From assembly GCA_017303935.1 (NCBI GenBank), contig JAFLBD010000002.1, positions 786,784 to 850,783 of the forward strand: a DNA stretch of 64,000 nucleotides. The letters run 5' to 3'. A model generated the notes under the pieces. The model was not told the origin of the DNA. It made no database searches and saw only the letters and a program-made list of their open reading frames with translations. Below, one piece after another: positions 46,160 to 64,000 of the stretch. Position 1 is the stretch's first letter. Every line of letters starts with the position of its first letter. Both the position numbers and the translations under genes were made by a program. This DNA is from Armatimonadota bacterium (lineage in GTDB: Bacteria > Armatimonadota > Fimbriimonadia > Fimbriimonadales > Fimbriimonadaceae).

Positions 46160-49100
46160 TATTCATCTCCATTTTGCCCATGGCGCGAAACCAACCCCAA
46201 GAACCGCTCAAAGAACGCAATGAGCTTCGCCAAAACCCGCTGCTTCTTCTGCCCGTGCCCACCGTCCGAGGAGAACCGGCTGGTCGGCGGCATGACCTTC
46301 GTGATAGCAGTTCCCGTGGAACGAATCACGCCGTCGCGGAAGGCTGATTCCACAAAAGCACGGGTTTCCTCGGGCTTTAAGCTCTCTTCTTCAATGATCT
46401 GACCAAGCTCCTCTTCGCGCTTTCGGTCAACAAATGCTCGCCACTCTGCATCGAGCTCACCTGATGCAGAGACCGAGTCTACGAAGTTCTCGATGAGGTC
46501 TTTCTTGTTCCTGAGGGTTGGCGAGGAATCGACTGCTCTCGTGATCTGGGCACGAATCTCCACATCATCGCCGTTGCCCTTCGCTTCGCGGAACTTCGCG
46601 ACAAGCATCAAAATGAAGTCAACGTTGATCTCGACCTGTTTGATCAGCTCGATCTCAAAGACGATGTCGTCGAGAATTTGCTCCTTGTCCGAGTCCTTGC
46701 CGGAGCGGAAGTCAGCGTAGATATCGAGGTAGATGCTTCGGTAGTCCTGACCTTCTCGGTCTGAGAGGACTGCGTTGCCTTCGAACTCGTCGAACGAAGT
46801 GAGAATGTTCTGGAGCCGGAGAATCGAGCCAAAGAGAGTTACGAACTCCTTTTGAGCCTGTTCACCCACAATCCGTTCATCGAGCGGGAATTTAGCGAGA
46901 AGCTCCTGCACTTTGGCTTCGTAGTCAGCAAAGTAGTCTCCATACGGCTTGAGAATGGCGATGCCCCGAGCTTCCTTGTTGCCAAAGAGCGAGAGCGCAT
47001 CGTTCGTCTCCGCCTCAAGGTCACGGAAGCTAATGATGTTCCCGTACGCTTTCACCGAATTGAGAATACGGTTCGTACGGGAGTAGGCCTGGAGCAGACC
47101 ATGGGCGCGAAGTTGCTTATCCACAAAGAGCGTGTTCAATGTGGTCGCATCGAAGCCGGTGAGGAACATGTTGACCACGATCACAAGGTCAATCTTTCGC
47201 TCCTTGAGATTTAGGGAAAGGTCTTTGTAGTAGTTCTGAAACTTGTCCGCTGATGTATCGAAGGACGTGCCGAACATCCCGTTGTAGTCTTTGATTGCCT
47301 CGTCAAGAAAGTCACGGGCCGCACCAGAGAGGTGGTTGGTCTCAAACTCCTCTTCCTCAAGTGCTCCGTCTTCAACGGCTTCATTCGCGGCGTACGAAAA
47401 GTTAATTCCTACCTTCAGCTGCTTATCAGGAACTAGCCCGGCTTGCTGACGTTTGAACTCTCCGTAGTAGGTCCGGGCTGCGTCGATTGATGCGGTGGCA
47501 AAGAGCGCGTTGAAGCCTCGCAAACGACGCTCTCCAAGGGAGTACGTGCTAGTTCGCTTCGTCTTCTGATCGAAGTGTTCCAGGATGTAGCTGGTCACCA
47601 AGCCGATTCGTTCTGAAGCAAGGAGTGCCCGTTCGGTGTCAATGGCTGAGACCTTCTTATCCAAAACGTCTCCCATCTTCACCGTGTTCACGTAGTCGAT
47701 CCGGAACGGAAGGACGTTCTTGTCAGTAATCGCATCGACGATGGTGTAGGTATGGAGCTTTTCCCCAAAAGCCTGTTCGGTCGTCTTGAGGTTCGGGTTT
47801 CCGCCACTCGACATGTTCTCGGTGAAGATCGGGGTTCCGGTGAAGCCAAAGAGGTTGTACCGCTTGAAGGCGCGGGTGATCGCCGTGTGCATATCACCGA
47901 ATTGAGAGCGGTGACACTCATCAAAGATCACCACGATGTGACCGCCAAAGACTTCATGTCCCTTATTGGCGTTAATGAAGTTGGCGAGCTTCTGGATCGT
48001 CGTGATGATGATCCGCGCATTCTTGTCCTCAAGCTGTCGCTTCAGAACTGCCGTGGAGGTGTTGGAGTTGGCTGCACCTTTTTCGAAGCGGTCGTACTCG
48101 CGCATCGTCTGGTAGTCGAGGTCTTTGCGGTCCACCACAAAGAGCACTTTGTCCACGCTCGGCATCTTGCTCGCAAGTTGAGCGGTCTTAAACGAAGTAA
48201 GCGTCTTGCCTGATCCAGTGGTGTGCCAAACGTAACCTCCTGCTCGCACCGAGCCTAGCCATTTCATGTTCGACGCCACCTCTATTCGCTGGAGGATTCG
48301 TTCGGTTGCGGCGATTTGGTACGGACGCATCACGAGGAGCATCCGATCTGCTGTGAGGACGCAGTATCGAGTGAGGATATTCAGCAGGGTGTGCTTCGCA
48401 AAAAACGTCTTGGCGAAAGCACTCAGTTCCTGAATCGGCTTGTTCTGCGAGTCGGCCCACCACGATGTGAACTCAAACGAGTTGGAGGTCTTCTTGATCT
48501 TCTTCGTTCCGGCAGCATCGGCAATGTGCTGGCGGCGGGTGGTGTTGCTGTAATACTTGGTCAGCGTTCCGTTGCTGATCACGAAAAGCTGGACGTACTC
48601 AAACAGGCCCGAACCAGCCCAGAAAGAGTCTCGCTGGTAGCGGTCGATCTGGTTGAAGGCTTCGCGGATGTCCACCCCGCGTCGCTTCAGTTCGATGTGA
48701 ACCATCGGCAAGCCATTGACCAAAACTGTCACGTCGAACCGAGTGGCGCGTGTCCCGGCGGTCTCATACTGGTTGATAACCTGCAACCGGTTGTTGTGGA
48801 TATTCTGTTTGTCGATCAGCTTGATGTTCTTGGTCGTGCCATCGTCGCGATGGAGAAGCTGAACCGAGTCCTCCTGGATGCGAATTGTCTTTTCAGCAAT
48901 GCCGTCGTTCTGCCCGGCGATGTTACTTTCAAAGAATCGCTTCCATTCGGCGAGGCTAAACTTCACATCATTCAGAGCCTCTAGCTGAGCCTGTAGGTTT
49001 GCGACGAGCTGCTCTTCTGAGGTGAACTTGAGGTAATCGTAGGCTTGCCCCTCTAAAATCCTGATGAGTTCCTTTTCCAGAGCGTCTTCACTCTGGTAGC

Positions 49101-49203
49101 TCGTCTCACGAACTTTCGATTCTGGGATGTACTGCGCAACGACCGTGCTCTCGTTGGAAACAGCAATCGGATCGTAGTTGTAAGGCGCTCGATCCTCGCT
49201 CAT
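46159..49203 (-). CDS. hsdR: type I restriction enzyme R subunit
   Basis: 1014 aa with an HSDR_N-like N-terminus (VLVNGLPMVHIELKRRG), TTGSGKT, FDECHRS and helicase C motifs. Confidence 0.9.
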   Translation of the reverse strand: MSEDRAPYNYDPIAVSNESTVVAQYIPESKVRETSYQSEDALEKELIRILEGQAYDYLKFTSEEQLVANLQAQLEALNDVKFSLAEWKRFFESNIAGQNDGIAEKTIRIQEDSVQLLHRDDGTTKNIKLIDKQNIHNNRLQVINQYETAGTRATRFDVTVLVNGLPMVHIELKRRGVDIREAFNQIDRYQRDSFWAGSGLFEYVQLFVISNGTLTKYYSNTTRRQHIADAAGTKKIKKTSNSFEFTSWWADSQNKPIQELSAFAKTFFAKHTLLNILTRYCVLTADRMLLVMRPYQIAATERILQRIEVASNMKWLGSVRAGGYVWHTTGSGKTLTSFKTAQLASKMPSVDKVLFVVDRKDLDYQTMREYDRFEKGAANSNTSTAVLKRQLEDKNARIIITTIQKLANFINANKGHEVFGGHIVVIFDECHRSQFGDMHTAITRAFKRYNLFGFTGTPIFTENMSSGGNPNLKTTEQAFGEKLHTYTIVDAITDKNVLPFRIDYVNTVKMGDVLDKKVSAIDTERALLASERIGLVTSYILEHFDQKTKRTSTYSLGERRLRGFNALFATASIDAARTYYGEFKRQQAGLVPDKQLKVGINFSYAANEAVEDGALEEEEFETNHLSGAARDFLDEAIKDYNGMFGTSFDTSADKFQNYYKDLSLNLKERKIDLVIVVNMFLTGFDATTLNTLFVDKQLRAHGLLQAYSRTNRILNSVKAYGNIISFRDLEAETNDALSLFGNKEARGIAILKPYGDYFADYEAKVQELLAKFPLDERIVGEQAQKEFVTLFGSILRLQNILTSFDEFEGNAVLSDREGQDYRSIYLDIYADFRSGKDSDKEQILDDIVFEIELIKQVEINVDFILMLVAKFREAKGNGDDVEIRAQITRAVDSSPTLRNKKDLIENFVDSVSASGELDAEWRAFVDRKREEELGQIIEEESLKPEETRAFVESAFRDGVIRSTGTAITKVMPPTSRFSSDGGHGQKKQRVLAKLIAFFERFLGLVSRHGQNGDE

Positions 49204-49710
49204 GCGGTCGCCTCCTGGAAAGTTAGGAGCTTGTCACGGTAATACTCGTACTGCTGGCGGCGGGCGTTGAGTTCGGCAGGAAGACCTGAGCTGAGATCGT
49301 TCACGAGGGCATCGAACTTATCTAGTAAATCAGCAATCCGCTTCTGCTCTTCAATCGGCGGGACGGGCACGAGTACTTCAGCCAAGTTGCCGACTGCCAA
49401 ACCAGGCTGAGCGCCAGATGATTTAAACTTGTTTAAGTTCATGGACGTAAGCATGTAGTACGCAAAATCGACATCCATGGCGTCAGAAGGCTCCGTAACT
49501 ACAGCATGTTCAGTCGCGTAAAACTCACCCGACGCTCTCTTTACATTTCCGCAGAGTGCGCCTTGCCGTCCGATCAGCAGGTACTTCCCGGTGTGACTTG
49601 CCGATCTTCCATAACCGCGTAGTCCATTCCCCCCATAGACTGGAAATCGCGATTCACTAGACTTCGCAGAAGCGATGGCTGTCGCGGAAAGATGTTGTCC
49701 AGCTTTCATG

Positions 49711-49727
<17 letters not shown>
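49200..49727 (-). CDS. hsdS: type I R-M specificity subunit, C-terminal half (TRD2 + distal conserved region)
   Basis: 175 aa ending VPVPPIEEQKRIADLLDKFDALV...RRQQYEYYRDKLLTF. It lies in the +1 frame relative to the upstream half. Confidence 0.8.
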
Positions 49728-50528
<801 letters not shown>

Positions 50529-50532
<4 letters not shown>

Positions 50533-51587
50533 TCCGAGTCCTCCATTTCACTTTTCTTACCAGCTTCCAGAAAGCGGTCAAAGTCACTCTGGAAAATCCG
50601 ATCCTGGACAATCCTGTACTTCTCGAACTCCGTTTCCGCGTGGAGCTTGGCTTGCTCGTGGCTAATCCGCCCTGGCCCGGTGAGTACCTCGCGCTCGTTG
50701 AATTCCAGGAACCCATCGAGCCGCTTGGCCCAATCCTCCATCGACATGGGAATCTTTCGCTTAGCTTGGTCCTCGGCGTAGTCGAGGTACATGGAGACGA
50801 TCCGCTCCATGTGTTCCATCTCCTCATCGTTTAGGTAGTTCTTGGCAATCGAGACGTCAGACTTGACGATTTTTCCCACGGGAGCGGACTCCCACGTCGT
50901 GAGACCCATGTGCTCTTTCTCGGCGTCTGCCCGTTCGATGATGAGTTCGGCGGCAGTGTGGCGGTGAACTGCCCAGTGCATCTTGTTTTGCACCAGAGCG
51001 AAAAAGAGTTTGGTTGTTTGGGCCGCCTGGTCGTAGTCAAAGGCAGAAGCGTAGAGGTCGGTGACTTTTTGGTAGAACTTCCGCTCCGACAGACGGATTT
51101 CTCGGATAAGCTGGAGTTGTCGGTCGAAGTATTCGTCCGTGAACATGTGCCCCTTCTTGAGGCGATCCACGTCCATGACCCATCCCTGGATGGTGTAGAG
51201 CTTCACAATCTGACCAGCCCACTTTCGGAACTGCACCGCGCGTTCGTTCTCGATCTTGAACCCGACTGCGATGATCGCTTGCAGACTGTAGAGCTTGGTG
51301 TTGTAGGCCTTGCCGTCGGCGGCAGTTATCAAATGCTGTTTGATAACTGAAGATTCTTCGAGCTCGTGATCAGCGATAATCCGAAGCAAGTGGTGGTTTA
51401 CGGTTTGCACCGTGACGCCGTAGAGGGTCGCCATCATCTTTTGAGTCAACCAGAGGTTCTCTTCTAGATAGAGCAGCTCGGTAGATTCAGATTCGCCGCC
51501 AACCGATGCGATGAATGTCAGGTATTCCGCCGCCGAAGCGCGCATTTTATCCATGTCCTGCTTCGGCTTTTCGGGCTTGTCGCTCAT
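50529..51587 (-). CDS. RhuM-family (Fic/DOC-related) protein embedded in the R-M operon
   Basis: 352 aa with LWLTQKMMATLYGVTVQTVNHHL and a conserved C-terminal helical region. ATGA overlaps at both ends. Confidence 0.7.
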
Positions 51588-53155
51588 GCTGGACTCCCTT
51601 CGAGGTCGGCTACGATGGCGTCAATTTGGGTGCGTAGCTCAGATTGGCGAGCCACGATACCTGCGATTCTCGCGTTGAGGGCCGTGATGTCGATGGCTTC
51701 GCTCGTATCTTCCTTCTCCACGTAGCTGGAGACCGAAATGTTGTAGTTGTTCTCCTCGATGTCTGCCGCTGTGACCAACCTCGTGAAGTGCTCCTCAGTC
51801 TGACGGGCGTTGAACGCATCGAGAATTCTCTGCTGATGCTCAGGAAGGAGCCTGTTCTTGTTTCCCACACGCTGAAAGAGTGCGGAGGCGTCGATGAAGA
51901 GAATTGCGTTATCCTTCTTCGACTTTTTGAGGACGATGACGCACGTGGCAATTGGTGTCCCGAAGAACAGGTCGGGCGGAAGCTGAATGACAGTGTCGAT
52001 GTAGTTGTTGTCGATCAGGTACTTGCGAATCTTCTGCTCGGCCCCGCTCCGATACAGGACACCGGGGAACTCAACGATTGCGGCGGTCCCGTTGACGGCA
52101 AGCCAATGGAGCATGTGCATTGTGAACGCAAGGTCGGCGGCTTTCTTTGGAGCGAGCACACCGGCTGGTGCGAACCGTGGATCGTTGATCAGGAGCGGAT
52201 TAGCGTCTCCGTCCCATTTGATTGAGTAGGGTGGGTTGGAAACAATCGCTTCAAACGGTTCATCATCCCAGTGGAGCGGATCAGTCAGGGTGTCGCCGTG
52301 TGCGATGTGGAACTTCTCGTAGTTCACGTCATGCAGGAACATGTTGATCCGAGCCAGGTTGTACGTCGTCAGGTTGATTTCCTGCCCATAGAAGCCTTGG
52401 CGAACGTTTTCCTTGCCGAGCACTTTGGCGAACTGGAGCAAAAGTGACCCGGAACCTACAGCGGGGTCATACACCTTATTGACCTGAGTCTTGCCAGCCA
52501 CGGCGATCTTCGCCAAAACCTCGGAGACTTCCTGCGGGGTGAAGAATTCACCTCCCGACTTTCCGGCTTGAGAGGCGTACATGGTCATCAAGAATTCGTA
52601 CGCATCACCGAAGAGGTCAATCGAGTTGTCTTCGTAGTTGCCGAGCGGTAGGTCTCCGATGGCATCTAAGAGTTTTACGAGCTTCTCGTTGCGCTTTGCC
52701 ACCGTTGGCCCGAGCTTTGCACTGTTTATATCAAGGTCATCGAACAGACCCTTCAGGTCATCTTCGCTCTCCGTCCCTACAGCCGAGCCTTCGATGTTGT
52801 TGAAGACTCTTTCAAGGGTCTCATTGAGGTTTTCGTCACTCTTGGCTCGTTTGCGGACGTTTACGAATAGCTCAGACGGCAGAATGTAGAACCCTTTCTC
52901 AGCAACCGTTTCGGTGCGCCCAAGCTCCGCATCCTTGTCGGACAGTTCGGCGTAGTTGAAATCTACTTCGCCAGCCTCCTTTTCGAGCTTATTGATGTAA
53001 GAAGACAGGTTCTCGGAGATGAACCGATAAAAAAGCATCCCGAGTACGTAAGACTTGAAATCCCAACCATCCACCGAGCCACGAAGATCATTGGCGATTC
53101 GCCAGATGGTCTTGTGAATCTCCGCCCTCTGAGTCTCGCTTGTGGTTGGCGGCAT
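51584..53155 (-). CDS. hsdM: type I R-M N6-adenine DNA methyltransferase
   Basis: 523 aa with an HsdM N-terminal domain, VYDPAVGSGSLL (motif I) and IVSNPPYS (motif IV). Confidence 0.9.
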   Translation of the reverse strand: MPPTTSETQRAEIHKTIWRIANDLRGSVDGWDFKSYVLGMLFYRFISENLSSYINKLEKEAGEVDFNYAELSDKDAELGRTETVAEKGFYILPSELFVNVRKRAKSDENLNETLERVFNNIEGSAVGTESEDDLKGLFDDLDINSAKLGPTVAKRNEKLVKLLDAIGDLPLGNYEDNSIDLFGDAYEFLMTMYASQAGKSGGEFFTPQEVSEVLAKIAVAGKTQVNKVYDPAVGSGSLLLQFAKVLGKENVRQGFYGQEINLTTYNLARINMFLHDVNYEKFHIAHGDTLTDPLHWDDEPFEAIVSNPPYSIKWDGDANPLLINDPRFAPAGVLAPKKAADLAFTMHMLHWLAVNGTAAIVEFPGVLYRSGAEQKIRKYLIDNNYIDTVIQLPPDLFFGTPIATCVIVLKKSKKDNAILFIDASALFQRVGNKNRLLPEHQQRILDAFNARQTEEHFTRLVTAADIEENNYNISVSSYVEKEDTSEAIDITALNARIAGIVARQSELRTQIDAIVADLEGSPA

Positions 53156-53345
53156 CAGACCCTAGCCGCTCCTGGAGGAGAGCCGTTTAGCCGGTGACTG
53201 CCTTCAAATGAAATCATAATTCTAGCTTCATTTTGACCCATTTGCCGGGTGCTCACATGGTAGCGAGATGCAAATGGGTTAGAAAGGCCTTCGCACGTTT
53301 GAAGTTACTTTTGGTTTGAGCTGAGAATGAACCAAGAATGGGCGC

Positions 53346-53525
53346 ATGCCCCGTTGCTACCTGTGCTCCAAACTGATCCCGGTCGAGGAACGTCCATTGC
53401 GGCGGCGGGTTCGTGTTGGCGAGATCGAGAAGAAGAAGTACGGCGCGGAGCGAGCCAGGTTCGTGCAGAGCCAGTACGGGATGAGGGTCGTCTGCAAGTC
53501 GTGTGCGGCGTTCCAAGATCGCTAG
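53346..53525 (+). CDS. 59-aa basic zinc-ribbon protein (two CxxC pairs)
   Basis: Below the track cut-off. My translation is MPRCYLCSKLIPVEERPLRRRVRVGEIEKKKYGAERARFVQSQYGMRVVCKSCAAFQDR. A hairpin terminator follows it. Confidence 0.45.
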   Translation: MPRCYLCSKLIPVEERPLRRRVRVGEIEKKKYGAERARFVQSQYGMRVVCKSCAAFQDR

Positions 53526-53618
53526 GCGCGGCAGAGGGAGCTTCATGAGCTTCACATGTTTCTGACGGCGGTCGTGGTGATCGGATTGGTCTCTCTGACT
53601 CTGTGGATACGCTGAAAA

Positions 53619-53644
53619 GACCCCGCTGGTGGTGCGGGGTTTTG
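53619..53644 (+). terminator. intrinsic terminator-like hairpin (possibly bidirectional)
   Basis: ACCCCGC-TGGTGGT-GCGGGGT followed by TTT and preceded by AAAAG. Confidence 0.6.
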
Positions 53645-53648
53645 GTGG

Positions 53649-55064
53649 GTGTCAGTTGGAGTCGTACTTGACTCCTCGGATATAGTCGGCGGCCTTTTGT
53701 GCCTGGGCGGCGGCAATCACGACGGCCTTGGGACCAACTACGCATACTGGCGACTCCTGGAGTTTCTCCTCTTCGGTACATGGGTCGATGAAATCACCGG
53801 CAAACTGGTGCTGAGCGCCAAGCAAGCCGCATATCTCACCGGAAACGAACGCAAGTGGCTCAGCCACCGTTTCGCTTTGCAACCTCTGCTCGACGACTTC
53901 TCCCGAGAAGTCTTTCCCTTGGACACGGAGGGAATTGTCTTTAACCATTACTTCTTAGCTAACCGGGCTGGCCAGGTTGTAACCGACATTCCAGATTGGT
54001 TGTTGAGCGCGGCCAGCGCCGAACGACGGAGCACAGGTGGAAAGCGCGTCGAGTTCTCGACGGGTAGGGACTGGACGCCGAGAGAGTCTGCAAAAGTGTT
54101 GAAGTCGTTGAGAGAAGAAGCGACTATTGCGGCCGTCACGGCCGGTTGTGCCGAGACCCAGCGCCTCCTTTCCTACTTGAACAGCCTCGCTCCGAACACC
54201 TTTGTGAAGATTCGAAAACGCGTTCCCCAAGCACATGTGGTAGCCGATGCGGTCGAAGCAGACGTCGAGCGGCAACATAACCTCCTTCAGGCCATCGAGC
54301 AAATGTGTCAACCCTTCTACAAGCCGGTTGAGAACTCGCCCCGTGCGTACACGCTCAACGAATCGTTCCCACGCCTAAAGCGGGAAGTTCGATGTGTCCT
54401 CACAGAGGGCTGGTTGAAGGCCGACTTAGCTTCTGCACAGCTTGCCATTGCAGCGCACATCTGGAAAGTACCCGTCGTCGTGGAATTCCTGGCGTCAGAG
54501 CAATCCATCTGGTTGGAACTACAGGCTTGGATGAAGACGACAGGTGACCCCGAATCGAAATCTAACCTGAAGGAAATGATGTATAGCCTGCTGTTCGGGA
54601 TGTCGCGTAAGAACCTGAGCGCGAAAGCGAGAGGCATGTTTCCAGGGTACAAGCACCCTTGGCTACGCCTGAGGCGACATAATATTGTCGCAGCGATGTT
54701 GAAAGCGCGAGAGGACCAGTTTGAAGTGTTGCGGCGCACCGGCAAGACTGAGGATGCCTTTGGACGCACGCTGATTCTTCAGCCAAAGGGTCGGTCACAC
54801 GGTAGCCACCAGCCAGATACTGCAAACCGTATCCTGGCCCAAGTTGCACAAAGTTGGGAACTCCGATTGATGTTGCCAATCCTAGACTTGGCCGAGGCTC
54901 ATCGAGGTACGAACGGATTCACAGTCACCATGTGGCTTCACGATGGCGTATGTATCAACGTTCACGATGCTAGGCGCATCGAAGGTTGGAAGGAGAGAAT
55001 ATCCTCGGCAGTTGCAAAGCAAGCTGGTGAACTCGGAATTCCGACCAGATTAGTCTGGGAGTAG
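53649..55064 (+). CDS. stand-alone family A DNA polymerase-like domain protein (no exonuclease domains)
   Basis: 471 aa from GTG 53649 (start uncertain). Motif A-like ADLASAQLAIAAH (D259). Motif B-like LKEMMYSLLFGMS (K308). RILAQVAQS. Motif C-like WLHDG (D432). Confidence 0.65.
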   Translation: MSVGVVLDSSDIVGGLLCLGGGNHDGLGTNYAYWRLLEFLLFGTWVDEITGKLVLSAKQAAYLTGNERKWLSHRFALQPLLDDFSREVFPLDTEGIVFNHYFLANRAGQVVTDIPDWLLSAASAERRSTGGKRVEFSTGRDWTPRESAKVLKSLREEATIAAVTAGCAETQRLLSYLNSLAPNTFVKIRKRVPQAHVVADAVEADVERQHNLLQAIEQMCQPFYKPVENSPRAYTLNESFPRLKREVRCVLTEGWLKADLASAQLAIAAHIWKVPVVVEFLASEQSIWLELQAWMKTTGDPESKSNLKEMMYSLLFGMSRKNLSAKARGMFPGYKHPWLRLRRHNIVAAMLKAREDQFEVLRRTGKTEDAFGRTLILQPKGRSHGSHQPDTANRILAQVAQSWELRLMLPILDLAEAHRGTNGFTVTMWLHDGVCINVHDARRIEGWKERISSAVAKQAGELGIPTRLVWE

Positions 55065-55467
55065 TTTCCTTATGAGATGCAATGCTGGTTCTGGTTCTAC
55101 TTGAATCAGCATTGCTAATCTCTGATTTCCATTTGTTAGATTCAGTGATTTCATTTATCCATTCCCTCTGTTTGCTATGCTTCCAACCATTCTCTTTCCT
55201 TAATCTTCTAGCAGTTCCTTCAGATTCTCCAATAGCCCGTGACGGGCTTGCCCCTACCTACTTCTCTGGTTTCTTCCTCTTAACTCTCCTAATTGGGATT
55301 ACCCATAACTATTCATCCCTAAGCGCCGCACTTTGAACCTGAGAGCCTGCAGAAATTTCGCACCAGCGCACTAAGGCAGGTCGACCACAAACGCGGTTTT
55401 GCGAGCCAAATGCTTTGCATGAAGTGCTTCATCAACAACACACCTCGGTCCATAATCACTCAAGGCC

Positions 55468-58400
55468 ATGGAGTCCATCATCACCATCCCGGAAGTAGGT
55501 CAGCTCGTCGAGGTGCGTCGGCGACAGTTCGTGGTGACCAGGGCTCGTCCATCCGGCCTGGACGGAGTAGAAGCGCAAACTGTGCTTGAACTCGCCTCTG
55601 TAGAGGACGATTCCTCTGGAGAGCAACTCACCGTAGTCTGGGAATCTGAAATCGGGGCCAGACTCGGCGAAGCCGCATCAATTCCAGAACCCACTCGATT
55701 CGACGACCCGGCCCAAATCGACGCATTCCTGTCCGCAGTCCGCTGGGGCGCCATCAGTTCTGCGGATACTCGCACCCTCCTGGCCCCTTTCCGCAGCGGA
55801 ATCGAAATCCACGACTACCAGCTTGAGCCGCTTGTCCGCGCGCTCCAAATGCCGCGCGTTAATCTGCTCATCGCAGATGGCGTTGGTATCGGTAAGACGG
55901 TGGAAGCCGGACTCGTCGCGCAAGAACTCATTCTCCGCAATCGCGCCCATAACGTCCTCGTGGTTTGCCCGGCCACACTGCAAATTCAGTGGCGCGACGA
56001 AATGCGGGACAAGTTCGGTCTTGAGTTCCGCATCGTGGACAGCGATACGCTCAAGCAACTTCGGCGAGAGCGCGGCATCCATGTCAACCCCTGGAAACAC
56101 TTCCCACGGCTCATCACCAGCATCGACTTCCTCAAGCGTGAGCGTTCGATGCAGCTGTTCCGCGAGCTACTCCCACCAGATGGTCGACCAACCTACCCTC
56201 GGACCTTCGACTTGATGATTCTTGATGAAGCCCACGGCTCCGCGCCATCCGGTTCAGGAAAGTATGCGACCGATTCTCAACGAACGTTGGCCATCCGAGA
56301 ATTAGCCCCTCACTTCGAGCACAAGATGTTTCTCTCGGCCACCCCGCACAACGGATACTCCGAATCCTTCACCGCGCTCCTTGAACTCCTGGACCCCCAA
56401 CGTTACGTTCGTTATCGAGGCTCAAATGATGCAGACAAGGTCGCCCAATACATGGAGCGCATCAAGGACCAGTTGCAATCGGTCACGATGGTGCGTAGGC
56501 TCAAGGACGACATCCCGCCGCATGGCGATGGCACACCACGCTTCCCCGCGCGAAAACTTGAGCGGCTAGAGGTCGACTATATGGAAGCGGAGCGGAATGC
56601 CCATGAGCTCCTGGAGAATTTCTTCAAATCGAGAGCAGAAACTCAAGGCAACCACTCCGGTCGCTATGCGACCGAGTTCATGCATAAGCTGCTCAAGAAG
56701 CGGCTGTTCTCGAGTCCCCTGGCATTCCACGAGACGCTGTCCAAGCACGCCAACACGCTACGACATGGCCGCGGAGAGCAGGCAAAGAAGGTTGACCCCG
56801 ACCTCCTCAAAAAGCGCATCGCTGCCCTGGAAGAATCCACGTCGAACGAGCAAGAACGGGAGGAGCGAGAAGACGACGCGGTCGTGGAAACCACGCGTGC
56901 AGCGGCCCCGCTGACACCCGAGCAAGATAGTCTGCTCAACGAGCTACTTCGCTGGTCAGAGCAAGCTTCTCGGAGCGCCGATGCGAAGACCCGCGTCCTC
57001 TTGTATTGGCTCAAGAAGACCCTGAAGCCCAACGACCAGTGGAACGACGAGCGGGTCATTCTCTTCACCGAGTATCGCGACACCCAGAACTGGCTGTTTC
57101 AGTTGCTGAATCAAGATGGCCTGGGTGATGTCGGTCGACTTGAGACCATGTACGGAGGCATGGATGACGACAAGCGCGAGGCGCTCAAAGCCGCCTTCCA
57201 AGCCAACCCCGCGCAATCACCCCTACGCATTCTCCTCGCCACCGACACGGCTAGCGAAGGCATCAACCTTCAGAACCACTGTAACAAGCTCGTCCACATC
57301 GAAATCCCCTGGAATCCGAACCGGATGGAGCAGCGCAACGGGCGCATCGACCGCCACGGCCAGAAGCGACCTTGCGAGGTGTACCACTTCGTTGGCCGAG
57401 GATTTGAAAGAGGCGGACTTGAAGCAGACCTCTACTTCCTATTCCGAGCTTGCCAGAAGGTCAACCAAATCCGAGAAGACCTCGGCAAGGTCGGTCCCGT
57501 CATCGAGCAGCAAGTCGAGGAAGCCATGCTTGGCAAACGAACCGAGCTTCAGACGACTCAGGCCGAGGCCGCATCGACTCCCATTCGCAAGTTGCTCACC
57601 GCAGAGCGCAAGATGCGAGAGCAAATCGAGTTGCTTCGCAACCGACTGGAGGAGACCAAGCGAGACCTTGGCATCTCGCCCGAGGCCATCCAAGCCGTAG
57701 TCGAAGTCGCGCTCGCACTTGAAGACCGTCCCGGACTAGAGCCGGTGCAAGTCATCGGAATCCCGAAGGCGTTCAAGATGCCTGCGCTCACCGGACCCTG
57801 GGAAGCCGCCCGAGCAGGCAACCCCCATCCGTACACCCAAGAGCCGCGGCCCATCGTTTTCGACCACGCCTACGTGGAAGGCCGTGATGATGTCGAACTC
57901 ATCCACCTCAACCACCGCCTCGTTCAAATGTCGCTCCGACTCTTGCGTGCGGAAGTCTGGAGCAGCGGCAACCGTCGAAAGCTATCTCGAGTTTCCGTCA
58001 AAGTCGTCTCCGACACGTACCTAAGCACACCTGCTTTGATTGCCTTCGGTCGACTCGTCGTTCTAGGTGCGACCCACCAGCGACTCCACGAGGAAGTCAT
58101 CACCGCAGGTGGCATTCTCAGGCCGGGTGGGATTGCCCGCATGAAGGTCGAGGACGTCCAACTTGCCCTTGAGCATGCTGAGAATGGGCTTGTAAACAAA
58201 ACCTATCTTGAGCAAATCCAGACAGACTGGCCAAGCCTCGGCCCCGCGCTTCAGAACGCCCTCGACATCCGCATGCGCGAAGTCACCCGCAACCTCGAAG
58301 GCCGCTTCCTAGAAAAGGCCGACCGAGAAAAGAAGGACGTCGAGAAGATTCTCCGCGAACTCGATGCCACCATCCGCGCCGAACTCAAAGAGCCAGACAA

Positions 58401-58608
58401 CCAGCTGACGTTCGAATTCAACGAACTTGAGCGCGACCAATACCGCCGAAACGTCGATGCCATCCGGCTCCGTCTTGAGGAAATCCCGGCTGAAATCGAG
58501 GAGGAGAAACGACTGGTCGACCGCCGCTACGAAAGCCCGACGCCACGCCTTTTCCCGGTCTGCGTCCTGCTCGTCGTGCCCGACACCATGGTAGAGGGAG
58601 CGAGATGA
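55468..58608 (+). CDS. SNF2-family helicase/translocase (DrmD-like)
   Basis: 1046 aa with HDYQLEP, ADGVGIGKT, ILDEAHG, LSATPHNG, TDTASEGINLQ and QRNGRIDRHGQ. Confidence 0.85.
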   Translation: MESIITIPEVGQLVEVRRRQFVVTRARPSGLDGVEAQTVLELASVEDDSSGEQLTVVWESEIGARLGEAASIPEPTRFDDPAQIDAFLSAVRWGAISSADTRTLLAPFRSGIEIHDYQLEPLVRALQMPRVNLLIADGVGIGKTVEAGLVAQELILRNRAHNVLVVCPATLQIQWRDEMRDKFGLEFRIVDSDTLKQLRRERGIHVNPWKHFPRLITSIDFLKRERSMQLFRELLPPDGRPTYPRTFDLMILDEAHGSAPSGSGKYATDSQRTLAIRELAPHFEHKMFLSATPHNGYSESFTALLELLDPQRYVRYRGSNDADKVAQYMERIKDQLQSVTMVRRLKDDIPPHGDGTPRFPARKLERLEVDYMEAERNAHELLENFFKSRAETQGNHSGRYATEFMHKLLKKRLFSSPLAFHETLSKHANTLRHGRGEQAKKVDPDLLKKRIAALEESTSNEQEREEREDDAVVETTRAAAPLTPEQDSLLNELLRWSEQASRSADAKTRVLLYWLKKTLKPNDQWNDERVILFTEYRDTQNWLFQLLNQDGLGDVGRLETMYGGMDDDKREALKAAFQANPAQSPLRILLATDTASEGINLQNHCNKLVHIEIPWNPNRMEQRNGRIDRHGQKRPCEVYHFVGRGFERGGLEADLYFLFRACQKVNQIREDLGKVGPVIEQQVEEAMLGKRTELQTTQAEAASTPIRKLLTAERKMREQIELLRNRLEETKRDLGISPEAIQAVVEVALALEDRPGLEPVQVIGIPKAFKMPALTGPWEAARAGNPHPYTQEPRPIVFDHAYVEGRDDVELIHLNHRLVQMSLRLLRAEVWSSGNRRKLSRVSVKVVSDTYLSTPALIAFGRLVVLGATHQRLHEEVITAGGILRPGGIARMKVEDVQLALEHAENGLVNKTYLEQIQTDWPSLGPALQNALDIRMREVTRNLEGRFLEKADREKKDVEKILRELDATIRAELKEPDNQLTFEFNELERDQYRRNVDAIRLRLEEIPAEIEEEKRLVDRRYESPTPRLFPVCVLLVVPDTMVEGAR

Positions 58609-61600
58609 GAAGGCCGCCGAAACTTGAGTGGATGGGGTTGATGGATGTCGTCGGCCCCTTCGTCACCCCTGCCATTGTCGCCGAGGCATTCCCCAGCGGC
58701 CTCGAAGGTCACGACTCCGGTTTGCTCAAGGGACTCCGTAGCGCCTACAAAACCTGGGAAGACTCCGACGACCCCGTCTGGCATAGAGAGTGGGTCAATG
58801 TGGTCCTCAGCAACGTCCTGGGCTACCAAGAAAAGCACATTCTCCAGGACCAGGCCATCCCCGAGTCCATCAACTACGTCGACCGGACCCATCACACCAC
58901 CATCCGGCCAACCTTCATCATCCATCAACCCGAATTCCCCGACCGGGGCCGCATTCTCGTCATGCGACTGCCCAAAGGTGAGTCGACCTCCAAGCCCAAA
59001 GCGGAAGCCAAGTGGCAAGCCTCGCCCATCAGCCAGATGCAGATGCTGCTCCAGGCGAACAACGAGAAAGTCGGCTTGGTCACCAACGGCGAAGAATGGG
59101 TTCTGGTCAACAACTGCGGAACCGGTGCCGTGGGCTTCGCCACCTGGTACGCCTATCTCTGGCTTGAGGAGCACGACACGCTCCGCAGTTTCCGGTCGCT
59201 CTTGTCCATCCGACGTGTCTTCGGCGGCGAGCCCGGAAGTCGACTAGTCGACCTTCTCGCGAAGGGTGCCGAAGACCAACAGGATGTCACCGACCGCCTG
59301 GGCTATCAAGTCCGCCGAGCGGTCGAAGAACTGGTCGGCGCCTTCGAGCGGCTCGACCGCGACTCCAACCGAGAACTCCTCAAGGGCGTTGGAGAAACCG
59401 AGGTCTACGAAGGCGTGCTCACCGTGATGATGCGTCTGGTGTTCCTCTTCTGCGCCGAGGAACGCGGGCTGCTCCATCTAGGCGAAGACCTATACGACCG
59501 GTTCTATGCCGTCTCCACGCTCCGCGAGCAGTTGCATGATGACGCAAGCAAGCTCACCGAGGAAGTCCTCGACCGTCGCTCATCGGCCTGGTGTCGGTTG
59601 CTGGCGACCTTCCGCATGGTCTACCAAGGAGTCGCTCACGAAGACCTGCGCATCCCTGCCTACGGCGGAACGCTCTTCGACCCCGACCGATTCCCGTGGC
59701 TCGAAGGCCGGCATGCCGATGGAACCAACGAGCCGCCTCACGTCAGCGACCGCATCGTGTTGCACCTGCTCGACTCGCTCCAGGTGCTGCGCCAGGGCCA
59801 GGAAGCCCGCAAGCTATCGTTCCATGCCCTCGATGTCGAGCAAATCGGCCACGTTTACGAAGGCCTGCTCGACCACACAGCGAAGCGAGCGCTCAAGCCC
59901 GTGCTTGGTCTGGTCGGCAAGGAAGGCGACGAACCCGAAGTCGACTTGGAGACGCTGGAAGCCAAGGTCGCTGAAGGTCGCGACAAGTTCATCGTGTATC
60001 TGAAGGACCAAACCGGCAAGACCGAGCGTGCCCTGGGCAACTTGCTAGACCAAGTAACCGATGCCGAGAACCTCCGTAAGTTGCGGGTGGTCTGCGGCGA
60101 CGACCACGACCTCTTCGAGCGGGTCAAACCGTTCGCCAACCTGATTCGCGAAGACAGCTTTGGCAACGTCCAGGTCTATCCCGAGGGCGCGCTTTACGCA
60201 ACCGTGGGGAGCGACCGGCGCAGCACCGGCACCCACTACACGCCGCGCATGCTCACCGAGGAAGTCGTCAAGTACGCTCTGGAGCCGCTGGTCTATGTCG
60301 GCCCCGCCGAGGGGTTGCCCGAGGAGGAGTGGACGCTCAAAGATGCCAAGGCTATCGTCGACCTCAAGGTCTGCGACATGGCGATGGGTTCGGGTGCATT
60401 CCTCGTGGCGGCCTGCCGATTCCTTTCCATCAAGTTGGTGGAGGCGTGGGCGGTTGCCGAAGAGAAAGCCGCCCGCCGACTGGGCTTCTCGGCCGAAGGT
60501 CACTTCTTCACCCATCGCATTGAGGGCGACCACCACGCCAAAACGCCTGGCACGACCGTCGCAACACCGTTTGGCGATATCGCCGTTGCCGACCCGAGCC
60601 AGGAGTTGATTCCAAACGATGCCGAGGAGCGGTTGGCGATGGCGAGGCGCATCGTCGCTGACCGATGCCTCTATGGCGTCGACCGGAACGCGATGGCGGT
60701 GGAGATGGCGAAGTTGTCGCTCTGGCTTACCACCCTGCGCAAAGACCGGCCGTTCACCTTCCTCGACCATGCCCTGCGCCATGGCGACTCCCTGCTCGGC
60801 GTCACCGAGCGGCAGTTGGAGTTCTTCAATGTGAACCTAGAAGAGGATAAGCAGTCACAAGCCCTCTTCTTAAGGTGGGTGCCGGAGTACGTCGAGAAGG
60901 TGCGCAACCTACGCCAACAGATTGCCCGCATCCCCAGTCACGACCCCGAGGCGATTCGGCGTAAGCAGAGGTTGTTCGACCAGGTGCGAGAATTGGAGAA
61001 GCCGCTCAAGTTTGCCGCCGACGCTCTATTGGCGTGCGAGCTTTCGGAAGGCAATGCTCAGAACACATTGGTAGGACGGACAAAGGTGCAGATGACCTTG
61101 ACCGAGGTTCCCGCAGGAGACCGCGTCAAGACGGTCTATCCAGAACTATCTGGACGACCGACTCTTCACTGGGAACTTGAGTTCCCGGATGTGTTTGACC
61201 AGGGCGGATTTGATGCAGTCGTTGGCAACCCGCCTTATCAAGGTGGCAGGCAAACCGCTACACATCAAGGACCAGACTATCACGCTCTGATTTGTCTTAT
61301 CAACCTAGTGCCCGGAACGGTCGACCTAGTTTGTCACTTCTTCAAAAGGGCGTTCCTGCTCATCGGCAACGGAGGTGCTGTTGCAGTTGTTTCGACAAAT
61401 TCTGTTAAGGAGACTTCGAATCGGGAGGCTTCGCTAGATTTCGTCCTTAGTTCCGGGGGGGCAATTTACCGTGCCACATCCGAGGCTCACTGGGGCGGAG
61501 CGGCGGCGGTGACGACTCTAAATGTCTGGATTTACAAGGGGCCCTGGGATGGTAACTACTTCATCGACGGAGCAAAGGTCGAGACAATCCATAGTTCGCT

Positions 61601-62711
61601 CGATGCTGATGTTGACTTGGCTCAGATTGAAAAACTGAAGCACTCTTTCCGCTACTCAGAAGGAACCAAACTGTATGGAGACGCCTTCATAATTAGCAAA
61701 GCCCAGCTAGGTACCATTCTGCGTGACAATCCAGGGCTCGGCGATTACCTACGTGTCTATGTTAACGGAGATGTTTTGAATGACACTCCCGACTGCGTGG
61801 GAACGGATGTCGTTGTGGACTTCGGTGAACTAGACGTCCAAGAGATTTCTGGTTGTGAAAGTATCATCAGAACTCTTTCATCGCAAGTAGCATACGAGCG
61901 CAGAAATCAGACTCGACAAATCCACGAGCATCGCCCTTGGCTTCATTGGGATAAGCGCACAAGATTCTTTGAAGAGGCAAGGAGCCGAGAACGCATTCTT
62001 GCCTGCGCAATCGTTTCGAGGCGACTGATGTTTGACTATGTCGACCCTCAAAAACTGTTCGCCCACGGTATCAAGTTGTTCTTGGATGATACTGGCTACC
62101 TGCTTGCGGTGTTGCAATCGAGTATTCACACTGCGTGGTCTCGGGTGGTCGCTTCGCGCATGAGACAAGAGACGCGATACTCGACCACCGACTGCTTTGA
62201 TACTTTTCCATTTCCGCCATTTTCCCGCGAGTTAGCCGAAGCTGGCAATCAGCTTGATGAGGCAAGGAGAGCTAGTCGTGAGAATCGGCAAATCGGACTT
62301 AACGGGCTATACGCGCTCGTCGATGATATCAACTGCCAAGAGGAGGACATCGTGGCAGTTCGACACGCAATTGTTTCGGTTGACGTGGCAGTTGCGTCGA
62401 GTCTTAGCTGGGACCCGACTTTCCTTGAGCATGGCTTCCACCCTTGGCATCCTGGAACGAGATTCACCATCTCGCCCCAGGCCCGCAAAGAAGTCCTCCG
62501 CCGCCTGCTGAAGCTGAACCACGAGCGCTACACCGAAGAAGTCGCCGCCGGCCTTCATGACAAGAAGGCTAAGAAATCCTCCGCCACCCCCGGCTCAACC
62601 CCCAAACGCGGCCGCAAACCTAAATCCTCGCAGCCGGATGCTACCGACCTCACCTCCCCCCGCCGCAACCTCTTCGACACCCAACTCACGTTCGGTGAGG
62701 TCGACAACTAG
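58605..62711 (+). CDS. large N6-adenine DNA methyltransferase (Eco57I/type IIG-like) with an HSDR_N-like N-terminal domain and a long C-terminal region
   Basis: 1368 aa with VCDMAMGSGAFLV (motif I) and VVGNPPYQGG (motif IV). The N-terminus has GLVTNGEEWVLV. ATGA overlap with the SNF2 stop. Confidence 0.85.
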   Translation: MRRPPKLEWMGLMDVVGPFVTPAIVAEAFPSGLEGHDSGLLKGLRSAYKTWEDSDDPVWHREWVNVVLSNVLGYQEKHILQDQAIPESINYVDRTHHTTIRPTFIIHQPEFPDRGRILVMRLPKGESTSKPKAEAKWQASPISQMQMLLQANNEKVGLVTNGEEWVLVNNCGTGAVGFATWYAYLWLEEHDTLRSFRSLLSIRRVFGGEPGSRLVDLLAKGAEDQQDVTDRLGYQVRRAVEELVGAFERLDRDSNRELLKGVGETEVYEGVLTVMMRLVFLFCAEERGLLHLGEDLYDRFYAVSTLREQLHDDASKLTEEVLDRRSSAWCRLLATFRMVYQGVAHEDLRIPAYGGTLFDPDRFPWLEGRHADGTNEPPHVSDRIVLHLLDSLQVLRQGQEARKLSFHALDVEQIGHVYEGLLDHTAKRALKPVLGLVGKEGDEPEVDLETLEAKVAEGRDKFIVYLKDQTGKTERALGNLLDQVTDAENLRKLRVVCGDDHDLFERVKPFANLIREDSFGNVQVYPEGALYATVGSDRRSTGTHYTPRMLTEEVVKYALEPLVYVGPAEGLPEEEWTLKDAKAIVDLKVCDMAMGSGAFLVAACRFLSIKLVEAWAVAEEKAARRLGFSAEGHFFTHRIEGDHHAKTPGTTVATPFGDIAVADPSQELIPNDAEERLAMARRIVADRCLYGVDRNAMAVEMAKLSLWLTTLRKDRPFTFLDHALRHGDSLLGVTERQLEFFNVNLEEDKQSQALFLRWVPEYVEKVRNLRQQIARIPSHDPEAIRRKQRLFDQVRELEKPLKFAADALLACELSEGNAQNTLVGRTKVQMTLTEVPAGDRVKTVYPELSGRPTLHWELEFPDVFDQGGFDAVVGNPPYQGGRQTATHQGPDYHALICLINLVPGTVDLVCHFFKRAFLLIGNGGAVAVVSTNSVKETSNREASLDFVLSSGGAIYRATSEAHWGGAAAVTTLNVWIYKGPWDGNYFIDGAKVETIHSSLDADVDLAQIEKLKHSFRYSEGTKLYGDAFIISKAQLGTILRDNPGLGDYLRVYVNGDVLNDTPDCVGTDVVVDFGELDVQEISGCESIIRTLSSQVAYERRNQTRQIHEHRPWLHWDKRTRFFEEARSRERILACAIVSRRLMFDYVDPQKLFAHGIKLFLDDTGYLLAVLQSSIHTAWSRVVASRMRQETRYSTTDCFDTFPFPPFSRELAEAGNQLDEARRASRENRQIGLNGLYALVDDINCQEEDIVAVRHAIVSVDVAVASSLSWDPTFLEHGFHPWHPGTRFTISPQARKEVLRRLLKLNHERYTEEVAAGLHDKKAKKSSATPGSTPKRGRKPKSSQPDATDLTSPRRNLFDTQLTFGEVDN

Positions 62712-63397
62712 ACAATATGGGTCGGCCAGAGACGCTCAATTTGATGGTACATCTCCATCAAGAGGAACTTCTCGCGTCCGATTGCGTCCTTAAGGTCCTT
62801 CGGAAAGCGGGCCATATCTTCATAGGTTGCTAAGACCACGAACTCCACTTGGTCGTACTCAAACTTGAAGTCGTACGGAACGCGCCATTCACGCTCGTGG
62901 GAGTAGTCGCAAGTCGACTTGTTCTCCCAATGGGCGTCTCGATACGCCTTAGGAGCATAGCCAGGCAGGAATGGCGTGATGAATGAATAAACATGAGAGT
63001 GAAAGCCTTTGCGGGGCTTTTCAATATCGCAATCCTCTTGGTGAATGAACTCACCCTGCTTCGTAAACAGGTCAGGTTTGACATACAGGGCCGGACCACC
63101 TCCTGTAGCGAAGATTCTAGGCTTGGCAAACCCGACCCCATAAGCAGAATAGGCGTCGCAATGACTTGGAAACGACCACCAAGGGCACTCCGTCAAACAT
63201 ACGGCCTTTGCGCCTGTCCAAGGCATATTGGTGGCATAGACTGTTTTGGACTGCAAGATGCCGACGAGCCGGTCAAAAGCGGAAGCTGGAATCTTAGAAT
63301 AAACTTCGTTCTCCGCGCCCTCAGACTCACCATAGGGTCTAGCGTCTTTGCAGAAGTGTGCAACATAGTCTGAAAAATCGGGGCGATTTCCACGCAT
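62708..63397 (-). CDS. AbiGi-like abortive-infection family protein
   Basis: 229 aa with VAHFCKD, VCLTECPW, YGVGFAKP and HEREWRVP. This pattern resembles AbiGi from memory. It converges on the methyltransferase stop through a shared CTAG. Confidence 0.5.
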   Translation of the reverse strand: MRGNRPDFSDYVAHFCKDARPYGESEGAENEVYSKIPASAFDRLVGILQSKTVYATNMPWTGAKAVCLTECPWWSFPSHCDAYSAYGVGFAKPRIFATGGGPALYVKPDLFTKQGEFIHQEDCDIEKPRKGFHSHVYSFITPFLPGYAPKAYRDAHWENKSTCDYSHEREWRVPYDFKFEYDQVEFVVLATYEDMARFPKDLKDAIGREKFLLMEMYHQIERLWPTHIV

Positions 63398-63511
63398 AGC
63401 CCATTATGAATGAGGCAACACATCGTTTCAACTGGCTCGAGGTGCCAAAATCGGGATTCAGGTTGGTTCGAATCTCCGCGGCGTTCCGTCCTGAATCTTG
63501 CTCCTCTCCAA

Positions 63512-64000
63512 ATGGCCGAGTATCGCGACCCCAAATACCTTTCTGATGGCGACAATCCGATTGACCGGGTGCGTTGTCCCATTCACGGGTTTATCAAATA
63601 TTCGCCCAATGAGCGACTCATCATCGACTCGCCCTACTTCCGACGACTCAGGCACATCCGGCAACTAGGCCTCACGGAGTACGCGTATCCGGGTGCAAAC
63701 CACTCTCGCTTCGAACACTCTCTCGGTGTGATGGCCATGGCATCTGCCATGTTCGATAGCCTGGCCGCCAAGAAGGGTGAAACCATGGAGAAGGAACTCG
63801 AGCAAGTTCCCTGGTTTGCGGAGGATACGCTAGCCAAAGCACGCCAGGTCGTCAGGCTTGCCGCACTGCTCCATGATACTGGCCATCCTCCGTTCAGTCA
63901 CGGCGCAGAGCATATGTGGTCGGCGGGTGGGCATGAGGAGTGGAGCATCAAGGTCGTCAAGGACCCTGAGTTCCTCGGCAAGCTGATTGATGAGACATGG
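63512..64000 (+). CDS. HD-domain phosphohydrolase (dGTPase/SAMHD1-like), 3' end beyond the window
   Basis: Not in the track because no stop lies in the window. My translation is MAEYRDPKYL...RRLRHIRQLGL...HSRFEHSLGVMAMA...LLHDTGHPPFSHGAEH. Confidence 0.75.
   Translation, partial: MAEYRDPKYLSDGDNPIDRVRCPIHGFIKYSPNERLIIDSPYFRRLRHIRQLGLTEYAYPGANHSRFEHSLGVMAMASAMFDSLAAKKGETMEKELEQVPWFAEDTLAKARQVVRLAALLHDTGHPPFSHGAEHMWSAGGHEEWSIKVVKDPEFLGKLIDETW

Follow-up and report, generated by a model that had tools for sequence, protein, structure and literature searches.

The question raised by this locus was whether a run of plus-strand genes, at positions 53346-62711 of a 64,000-nucleotide stretch of Armatimonadota DNA (assembly GCA_017303935.1, contig JAFLBD010000002.1, positions 786,784 to 850,783; hereafter the window, meaning the whole stretch that was analysed), forms a single new defence system. 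A sequence-only reading had proposed, from synteny, that a zinc-ribbon gene, a PolA-like DNA polymerase gene, a spacer possibly encoding an RNA, an SNF2 translocase gene and an N6-methyladenine (m6A) methyltransferase gene make up one composite unit unlike any named system. Its description of the layout held: every open reading frame (ORF) described lies on the plus strand where it had been placed, opposite-strand genes border the region on both sides (hsdM on the left, an AbiGi-like gene on the right), and no housekeeping gene lies between these flanks. The region very probably consists, nonetheless, of three independent units, namely a complete class 1 DISARM system, a polymerase-like gene truncated at its 5' end, and a prematurely stopped zinc-ribbon gene. 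The locus adds one more example of a known system, along with the debris of two mobile elements, and does not bear out a novel composite one: the seemingly new defence system with a polymerase was an ordinary class 1 DISARM that extends across the edge of the window.

The SNF2 and methyltransferase genes turned out to be drmD and drmMI of class 1 DISARM, that is, part of a named system whose drmA, drmB and drmC genes lay outside the proposed unit. The drmD product matched the NCBIfam equivalog model NF038317 (DISARM system SNF2-like helicase DrmD) with 1248.8 bits against a cutoff of 610, and the PADLOC DrmD profile with E=0 over positions 10-1037 of 1040. Pfam domains SNF2-rel_dom and Helicase_C were recognized, and the motifs were intact (Walker A GIGKT at residue 140, DEAH at residue 253). 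The drmMI gene shares its first 4 nt with the end of drmD. Its product matched the PADLOC DrmMI profile with E=0 over positions 11-1335 of 1347, contained the Pfam domains Eco57I, MmeI_Mtase and MmeI_TRD, and kept DMAMGSG at residue 591 and NPPY at residue 875.

The system reaches beyond the right-hand boundary of the proposed unit, with the remaining DISARM genes past position 64000. The AbiGi-like protein, used as a query, led to L053, a 24-kb contig that is 100% identical to window positions 52708-64000 and from which the coordinates past 64000 were extrapolated (Table 1). On this contig drmA, drmB and drmC, together with a C5 cytosine methylase gene (C5 methylase), begin 2.8 kb past drmMI. 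The class 1 criteria were checked gene by gene (drmA by PF00271, drmB by PF09369, drmC by PF13091, drmD by PF00176 and drmMI as an m6A methyltransferase), and all five genes were found. In its published definition (bioRxiv 10.1101/2021.12.28.474362), class 1 DISARM has drmD and drmMI ahead of a drmA/B/C core, and some systems carry an additional cytosine methylase; the gene content of the locus fits this definition, and we assigned it to this class. Inside the window, a tblastn search for drmA/B/C and for the backbone of the islands described below, with the backbone proteins and the DrmA/B/C of locus L008 as queries, matched nothing else.

A metagenome scan with DrmD retrieved 22 loci, with DrmD 46-92% identical. 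DrmA lies downstream, on the same strand, in 7/7 of the loci that continue for over ~1.5 kb beyond the drmMI position; DrmMI stands between the two in five of them, L042 and L043 being without it. DrmB and DrmC then follow where the contig reaches, and inserts are often 1.4-2.6 kb long. Two islands that are siblings of ours, L054 and L055, also have drmA downstream of drmMI, with differing inserts. At our locus the order and strand from drmMI to drmA are canonical, with three unrelated genes, one of them on the opposite strand, intervening; similar inserts were seen in L031, L040, L054 and L055.

These three foreign genes are one reason to consider that drmD and drmMI might work on their own, without drmA/B/C, as a type IIG/ISP-like restriction-modification pair in which an MmeI-like enzyme is joined by a translocase. 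DrmMI does match the PADLOC profile REase_MTase_IIG over its full length (E=7e-253) and bears the NCBI name 'restriction endonuclease', but its weak match to MmeI_N stays below threshold (17.8 vs 27 bits) and a PD-(D/E)XK nuclease motif was not established. In Serratia, protection against phage Nami was almost lost when just drmD and drmMI were deleted (bioRxiv 10.1101/2021.12.28.474362). Since DrmD passes the DISARM equivalog model, and drmA/B lie downstream in every locus long enough to tell, we regard an independent pair as highly unlikely.

The DISARM assignment also allowed a comparison with the class 1 system of Serratia sp. SCBI (Ofir et al. 2018; bioRxiv 10.1101/2021.12.28.474362; Bravo et al. 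2022, PMC9142583). As in that system, five genes stand in canonical order on one strand and an extra C5 methylase adjoins drmC. Differences are that AbiGi-like (opposite strand), HD-domain and DarG-C-like genes here split drmMI from drmA, that the C5 methylase gene runs convergently and its product fits a generic type II methylase better than DrmMII, and that the host is an Armatimonadetes metagenome-assembled genome, in which a 100%-identical DrmMI is annotated. The Serratia DrmMI methylates a non-palindromic motif; protection comes mainly from DrmA and DrmB and is stronger where motifs are unmethylated, DrmC is not required, and against some phages DrmD and DrmMI play a part (bioRxiv 10.1101/2021.12.28.474362). 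By analogy, the mechanism at our locus, where gene content alone was observed, is expected to be similar. DrmMI would put an m6A mark on host DNA, within a non-palindromic motif and with a specificity set by the part encoded at 61190-62462, and a DrmA-DrmB helicase complex would load on incoming DNA, being more active on unmethylated motifs. DrmD, as an SNF2 ATPase, and DrmC, as a PLD nuclease, would assist this complex. The target-recognition part of drmMI just mentioned differs in every sibling, while its flanks are 84-91% identical at the DNA level; it has no DNA similarity to L031 and L006 and a single 68% segment in common with L005. This suggests recognition-domain swapping and differing methylation motifs among the siblings.

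ARMADA type II (armABCD; bioRxiv 10.1101/2025.09.15.676423; PMC13463889) also opens with a RapA/SNF2-type helicase and, next to it, a PglX-like adenine methyltransferase, but its ArmC is a fused YprA-type helicase-nuclease and its ArmD is UvrD/GajB-like. Membership was ruled out, as DrmA, DrmB and the PLD-type DrmC are separate canonical genes here.

We then asked what the polymerase-like gene is. Its siblings all begin MYLPHKTCSPEFRD...LPGLG, whereas the ORF of the window begins with unrelated residues, and the DNA homology of the window to L001, L005, L006 and L007 starts at 53724. The first ~25 codons of the ORF are the antisense of the 3' end of an ArdC-type anti-restriction gene, not polymerase sequence. 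On the minus strand, the window reads ...KAVVIAAAQAQKAADYIRGVKYDSN followed by a stop, as compared with ...KAVVIAAAQAQKAADYIRGVTYDS followed by a stop in L056, a locus with a convergent ArdC gene that is described below. The polymerase-like and ArdC genes are thus fused head-on at ~53724-53730, and the two homologies overlap there in a short GGCCTTGGG-like stretch. Because of this overlap we propose a microhomology-mediated deletion; as the sequence suggests, what went missing was the ArdC 5' part, all of the island backbone and the initial ~24 codons of the polymerase. The deletion would be recent, since the 447 codons left contain no internal stop and are 93% identical to the family member P0001. 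The apparent GTG start of the ORF abuts the terminator hairpin of the zinc-ribbon/ArdC pair. Because its own start is missing and the frame is fused to the ArdC remnant, the polymerase-like gene of the window is most likely a recent pseudogene. DISARM here adjoins a decayed mobile-element gene, and the combination is not worth pursuing as a new system.

In relatives whose polymerase-like protein is 54-93% identical, the gene is preceded by an island backbone made of an integrase, DUF2958, DUF932, two small genes, a 265-aa gene and a C5 methylase. The synteny of this backbone is kept down to 54% identity while the genes downstream change, and at 42% it is kept in part (integrase, DUF932 and one small gene). 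Complete DISARM lies downstream of polymerases that are 75-93% identical (L001-6, L054, L055). At 64% identity (L057), the downstream genes are type I HsdR, Hachiman (HamA plus a helicase), SIR2, SLFN and TIR; at 54% (L007), a PLD-SNF2 helicase of another PADLOC family; and at 42% (L008), helix-turn-helix genes and then an inverted drmC-B-A.

The sequence-only reading had named unlinked polymerase homologues as the observation that would make the adjacency fortuitous, and outside one narrow island lineage this is what we found, because the two kinds of loci lack each other and DISARM also occurs alone. Neither DrmD and DrmMI nor DrmA/B/C were found in the 21 genome loci with PolA-like homologues of 22-37% identity, which come from Armatimonadota, Verrucomicrobiota, Bacteroidota, Deinococcus, Cyanobacteria, Patescibacteria and Gammaproteobacteria, and a PolA-like gene was found in 0/22 of the DrmD metagenome loci. 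L031 carries the same DISARM (DrmD 92% and DrmA 93% identical) without polymerase or spacer, and its DNA homology to the window runs from 55479, at the start of drmD.

There is next to no chance that zinc ribbon, polymerase, spacer RNA, SNF2 protein and methyltransferase form one new composite defence system. All components are co-oriented between opposite-strand genes, and the order from polymerase through spacer and SNF2 gene to methyltransferase does recur in the closest sibling islands, but not beyond this narrow clade. The SNF2 and methyltransferase genes do share one defence system, yet this is DISARM, with drmA/B/C downstream and with the zinc ribbon and the polymerase-like gene outside it. 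In addition to the lack of linkage in distant loci, the polymerase gene is truncated here, the zinc ribbon is missing from every related locus, and the spacer has neither an Rfam match nor covariation.

Several observations weigh against so clean a separation into three units. The drmA/B/C genes were seen on an identical short-read contig, outside the window itself. The truncated polymerase ORF, having no internal stop, could be translated from GTG 53649 or from an internal start. In 4/4 distinct sibling islands read as DNA (L001-L004 taken as one, L005/L054, L006 and L055), the polymerase-like gene and DISARM are adjacent and co-oriented, with a conserved ~300-nt non-coding stretch between them. 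Lastly, the L008 island, with its 42% identical polymerase, carries drmA/B/C 3.4 kb downstream.

A possibility was that, in this island lineage only, the PolA-like protein is a DISARM accessory or the island's counter-measure to its own cargo. It might, for example, fill in or process the DNA ends that DrmAB would attack, the spacer being a shared regulatory region. This would account for an adjacency maintained over 75-93% protein and 74-92% DNA identity, for the ~300 nt of spacer that stay at 81-83% whatever the divergence of the polymerase, and for the DISARM core found again near the 42% identical gene. We nevertheless hold it to be very unlikely: L031 has the same DISARM without polymerase or spacer, polymerases that are 64% and 54% identical adjoin quite different cargo, DISARM is intact in the window where the polymerase is without start and promoter, and a terminator-like hairpin would separate the two transcription units.

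The spacer was also looked at on its own. Its first ~300 nt (55065-55360) are pyrimidine-rich and 81-83% identical in all sibling islands, and are not conserved beyond the siblings; on either side, DNA identity among siblings is 74-92% in the polymerase gene and 87-88% in drmD. In L031, whose drmD is 92% identical, no such spacer precedes this gene. We consider it non-coding because the siblings differ by single-base indels. A small ORF at 55082-55336 (84 aa) was ruled out, several such indels falling within it. Two hairpins are invariant in the siblings, the long one that follows the polymerase-like stop (Table 1) and GCCCG-TGA-CGGGC. The long hairpin is the probable terminator of the polymerase-like gene, and the rest of the spacer presumably acts as drmD promoter and leader in this island lineage. 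An Rfam scan of 53000-55600 at E<=1 returned a chance snoRNA match only. In RNAalifold runs on both strands with four distinct sequences, the covariation term came out at about zero, the diversity being too small to decide. A sigma-70 promoter scan of 53000-55600, which is uninformative for this phylum, gave no sites.

The AlphaFold2 model of the PolA-like protein (pLDDT 89.6, pTM 0.85) was compared with known structures. The top 50 Foldseek hits in the PDB were all family A polymerases, with Taq and Klenow domains first (probability 1.0, E ~4e-8, 370-400 aligned columns), and in a viral structure library the model matched family A polymerase domains only (probability 1.0). A profile built from 24 family members matched Taq Pol I (E=6e-6), and the match spanned motifs A, B and C. 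Residues D255, K300, K304, Y308 and D428 (P0001 numbering), which align to the Taq motifs, were invariant in the 24 sequences down to 26% identity. The window copy reads DLASAQL in motif A, KxxxKxxxY in motif B and HDG in motif C, the last instead of HDE, with an invariant Gly for the Glu. A Gln stands at the steric-gate Glu position in a gapless hand reading of motif A, made with no tool alignment.

The protein thus resembles family A DNA polymerases (Pol I Klenow/KlenTaq) in its thumb-palm-fingers fold, its motif A Asp, its motif B K...K...Y...FG and its motif C Asp. Unlike them, it is only ~467 aa long, is without 3'-5' or 5'-3' exonuclease domain, and is encoded in integrative islands beside recombinases. 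The ORF falls below the gathering threshold of Pfam DNA_pol_A (PF00476; 18.4 vs 34.3 bits), and the copies of Pfam-A, NCBIfam, PHROGs and PADLOC that were searched hold no model of the family; for these reasons we filed it as a separate branch. Judged by modelled fold and motifs, it is a distant branch of family A, not Pol I, with polymerisation as its predicted activity. The family comprises 1547 representatives at 50% identity, 1001 of them with E<=1e-30, and nearly all are 450-530 aa long. A search of a partial literature library for such a polymerase in integrative elements found nothing relevant, which is no proof of novelty.

Among 125 neighbour proteins at the 21 distant loci, the only recurrent families were Phage_integrase (9), Resolvase (3), Recombinase (2) and DUF932 (2). 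We tentatively suggest that the PolA-like protein may be an active polymerase and the hallmark of undescribed, phylum-spanning integrative islands (integrase- or resolvase-linked, often with DUF932 and DUF2958), marking a hot spot for interchangeable defence cargo. The gene is the last of the island backbone, with the cargo directly downstream, DISARM in this lineage. On the model of piPolB in pipolins, its product would replicate or repair the island after excision. Pipolins (PMC5695915) likewise have a stand-alone DNA polymerase gene conserved in integrase-bearing islands across phyla, but their polymerase is a primer-independent one of family B and ours belongs to family A, so that the likeness is an analogy only. 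A direct functional tie between the polymerase and DISARM is very unlikely, and much less likely than such a role in the islands. The PolA-like family is a candidate new mobile-element replication enzyme and, by marking the boundary between backbone and cargo, a possible search handle for defence cargo.

The zinc-ribbon gene, which had been counted as a component, has no homologue that we could find in the PolA-like or DrmD loci. Its frame meets an in-frame TAG at 53523-53525 and then runs on to a TGA at 53613-53615, which would give an 89-aa form. Homologues (33 clusters, 83-100% identity, mostly 89 aa with a range of 72-99), drawn from Fimbriimonadaceae, Kamptonema and metagenomes, all continue past residue 59, and at the position of the TAG the fetched sequences read Leu (2/5) or His (3/5). 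They end in a hydrophobic C-terminal membrane helix, which the TAG removes in the window. In L056 and 23 similar places, the zinc-ribbon gene lies between DUF305/YHS/DUF2231 copper-resistance genes and a convergent ArdC gene, and the same copper-resistance genes are present at 38-43 kb of the window. Judged by this gene order, the zinc ribbon is the terminal gene of a copper-resistance/ArdC element to the left and does not belong to DISARM. The GC-rich hairpin behind it (Table 1) is a terminator-like site that the zinc-ribbon gene and the ArdC gene facing it have in common. Between the copper-resistance genes and the zinc ribbon, the window has an insertion of PDC-S53 and a type I restriction-modification system with RhuM (43484-53155, minus strand).

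Table 1. Features of the locus in window coordinates; positions past 64000 are extrapolated from contig L053.
Feature	Position	Strand	Remarks
hsdM	51584-53155	-	Left flank
Zinc-ribbon ORF	53346-53525	+	59 aa; CxxC...CxxC; no Pfam match
GC-rich hairpin	53617-53643		A-run/T-run flanks; dG -21.5 kcal/mol, z -3.15; conserved in L056
PolA-like ORF as first described	53649-55064	+	471 codons
ArdC-type anti-restriction gene, 3' remnant	53652-53730	-	~25 codons; ends ...KAVVIAAAQAQKAADYIRGVKYDSN and stop
PolA-like remnant	53724-55064	+	Codons ~25-467; without native start, first ~24 codons and promoter
Gap between PolA-like ORF and SNF2 gene	55065-55467		403 nt
Long hairpin	55074-55122	+	22-bp; dG -26.6 kcal/mol, z -5.1; directly after PolA-like stop, then U-rich stretch
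drmD	55468-58608	+	SNF2-type helicase, 1046 aa; NF038317, PADLOC, Pfam
drmMI	58605-62711	+	MmeI/PglX-like N6-adenine methyltransferase, 1368 aa; PADLOC, Pfam
AbiGi-like gene	62708-63397	-	Pfam AbiGi 27.7 bits; inserted antisense in DISARM
HD-domain (dGTPase-like) gene	63512-64000 (5' part; runs on past window)	+	476 aa; below family cutoffs
DarG-C-terminal-like gene	~64939-65511		190 aa; resembles DarG C-terminal part
drmA	~65511-69050 (L053 4348-7887)		1179 aa; Pfam Helicase_C; PADLOC DrmA E=8.7e-302
drmB	~69047-70906 (L053 2492-4351)		619 aa; MZB/DUF1998 PF09369; PADLOC DrmB E=1.2e-67
drmC	~70899-71687 (L053 1711-2499)		262 aa; PLDc_2; PADLOC DrmC E=1.3e-48
C5 methylase	~71684-72880	-	398 aa; convergent with drmC
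Resolvase gene	On L053, after C5 methylase		

Pfam searches of the main large ORFs of the window recovered molybdenum cofactor (Moco) and nitrate genes, metal efflux, PDC-S53 and the type I restriction-modification system. Positions 1-43000 are chromosomal, with molybdopterin oxidoreductases, Moco biosynthesis genes and a major facilitator superfamily transporter at 1-19 kb, and at 22-43 kb a metal-resistance block with CusB/AcrB-type efflux, two P-type ATPases and the YHS/DUF305/DUF2231 genes. No tRNA gene that could have served as an attachment site was present in the window. The segment at 43484-53155, another defence block, includes a full-length match to the PADLOC candidate PDC-S53, an 891-aa SF1 helicase, and nearby the G+C content falls to 0.46-0.49. 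In its type I system, hsdS is split into ORFs of 175 and 273 aa, and the RhuM-family gene lies between hsdS and hsdM.

Defence genes are nested in the DISARM operon itself: AbiGi-like, HD/dGTPase-like and DarG-C-like genes here, and thyA plus dcd in a sibling. The 3' end of the AbiGi-like gene overlaps the drmMI stop codon by 4 nt, and no AbiGii partner of this solo gene was seen. The pair of HD-domain and DarG-C-like genes, at 7887-9886 of L053, also stands between drmMI and drmA in the sibling L055 (12078-13990), and L054 carries CBS, thyA and dcd genes at this insert site instead.

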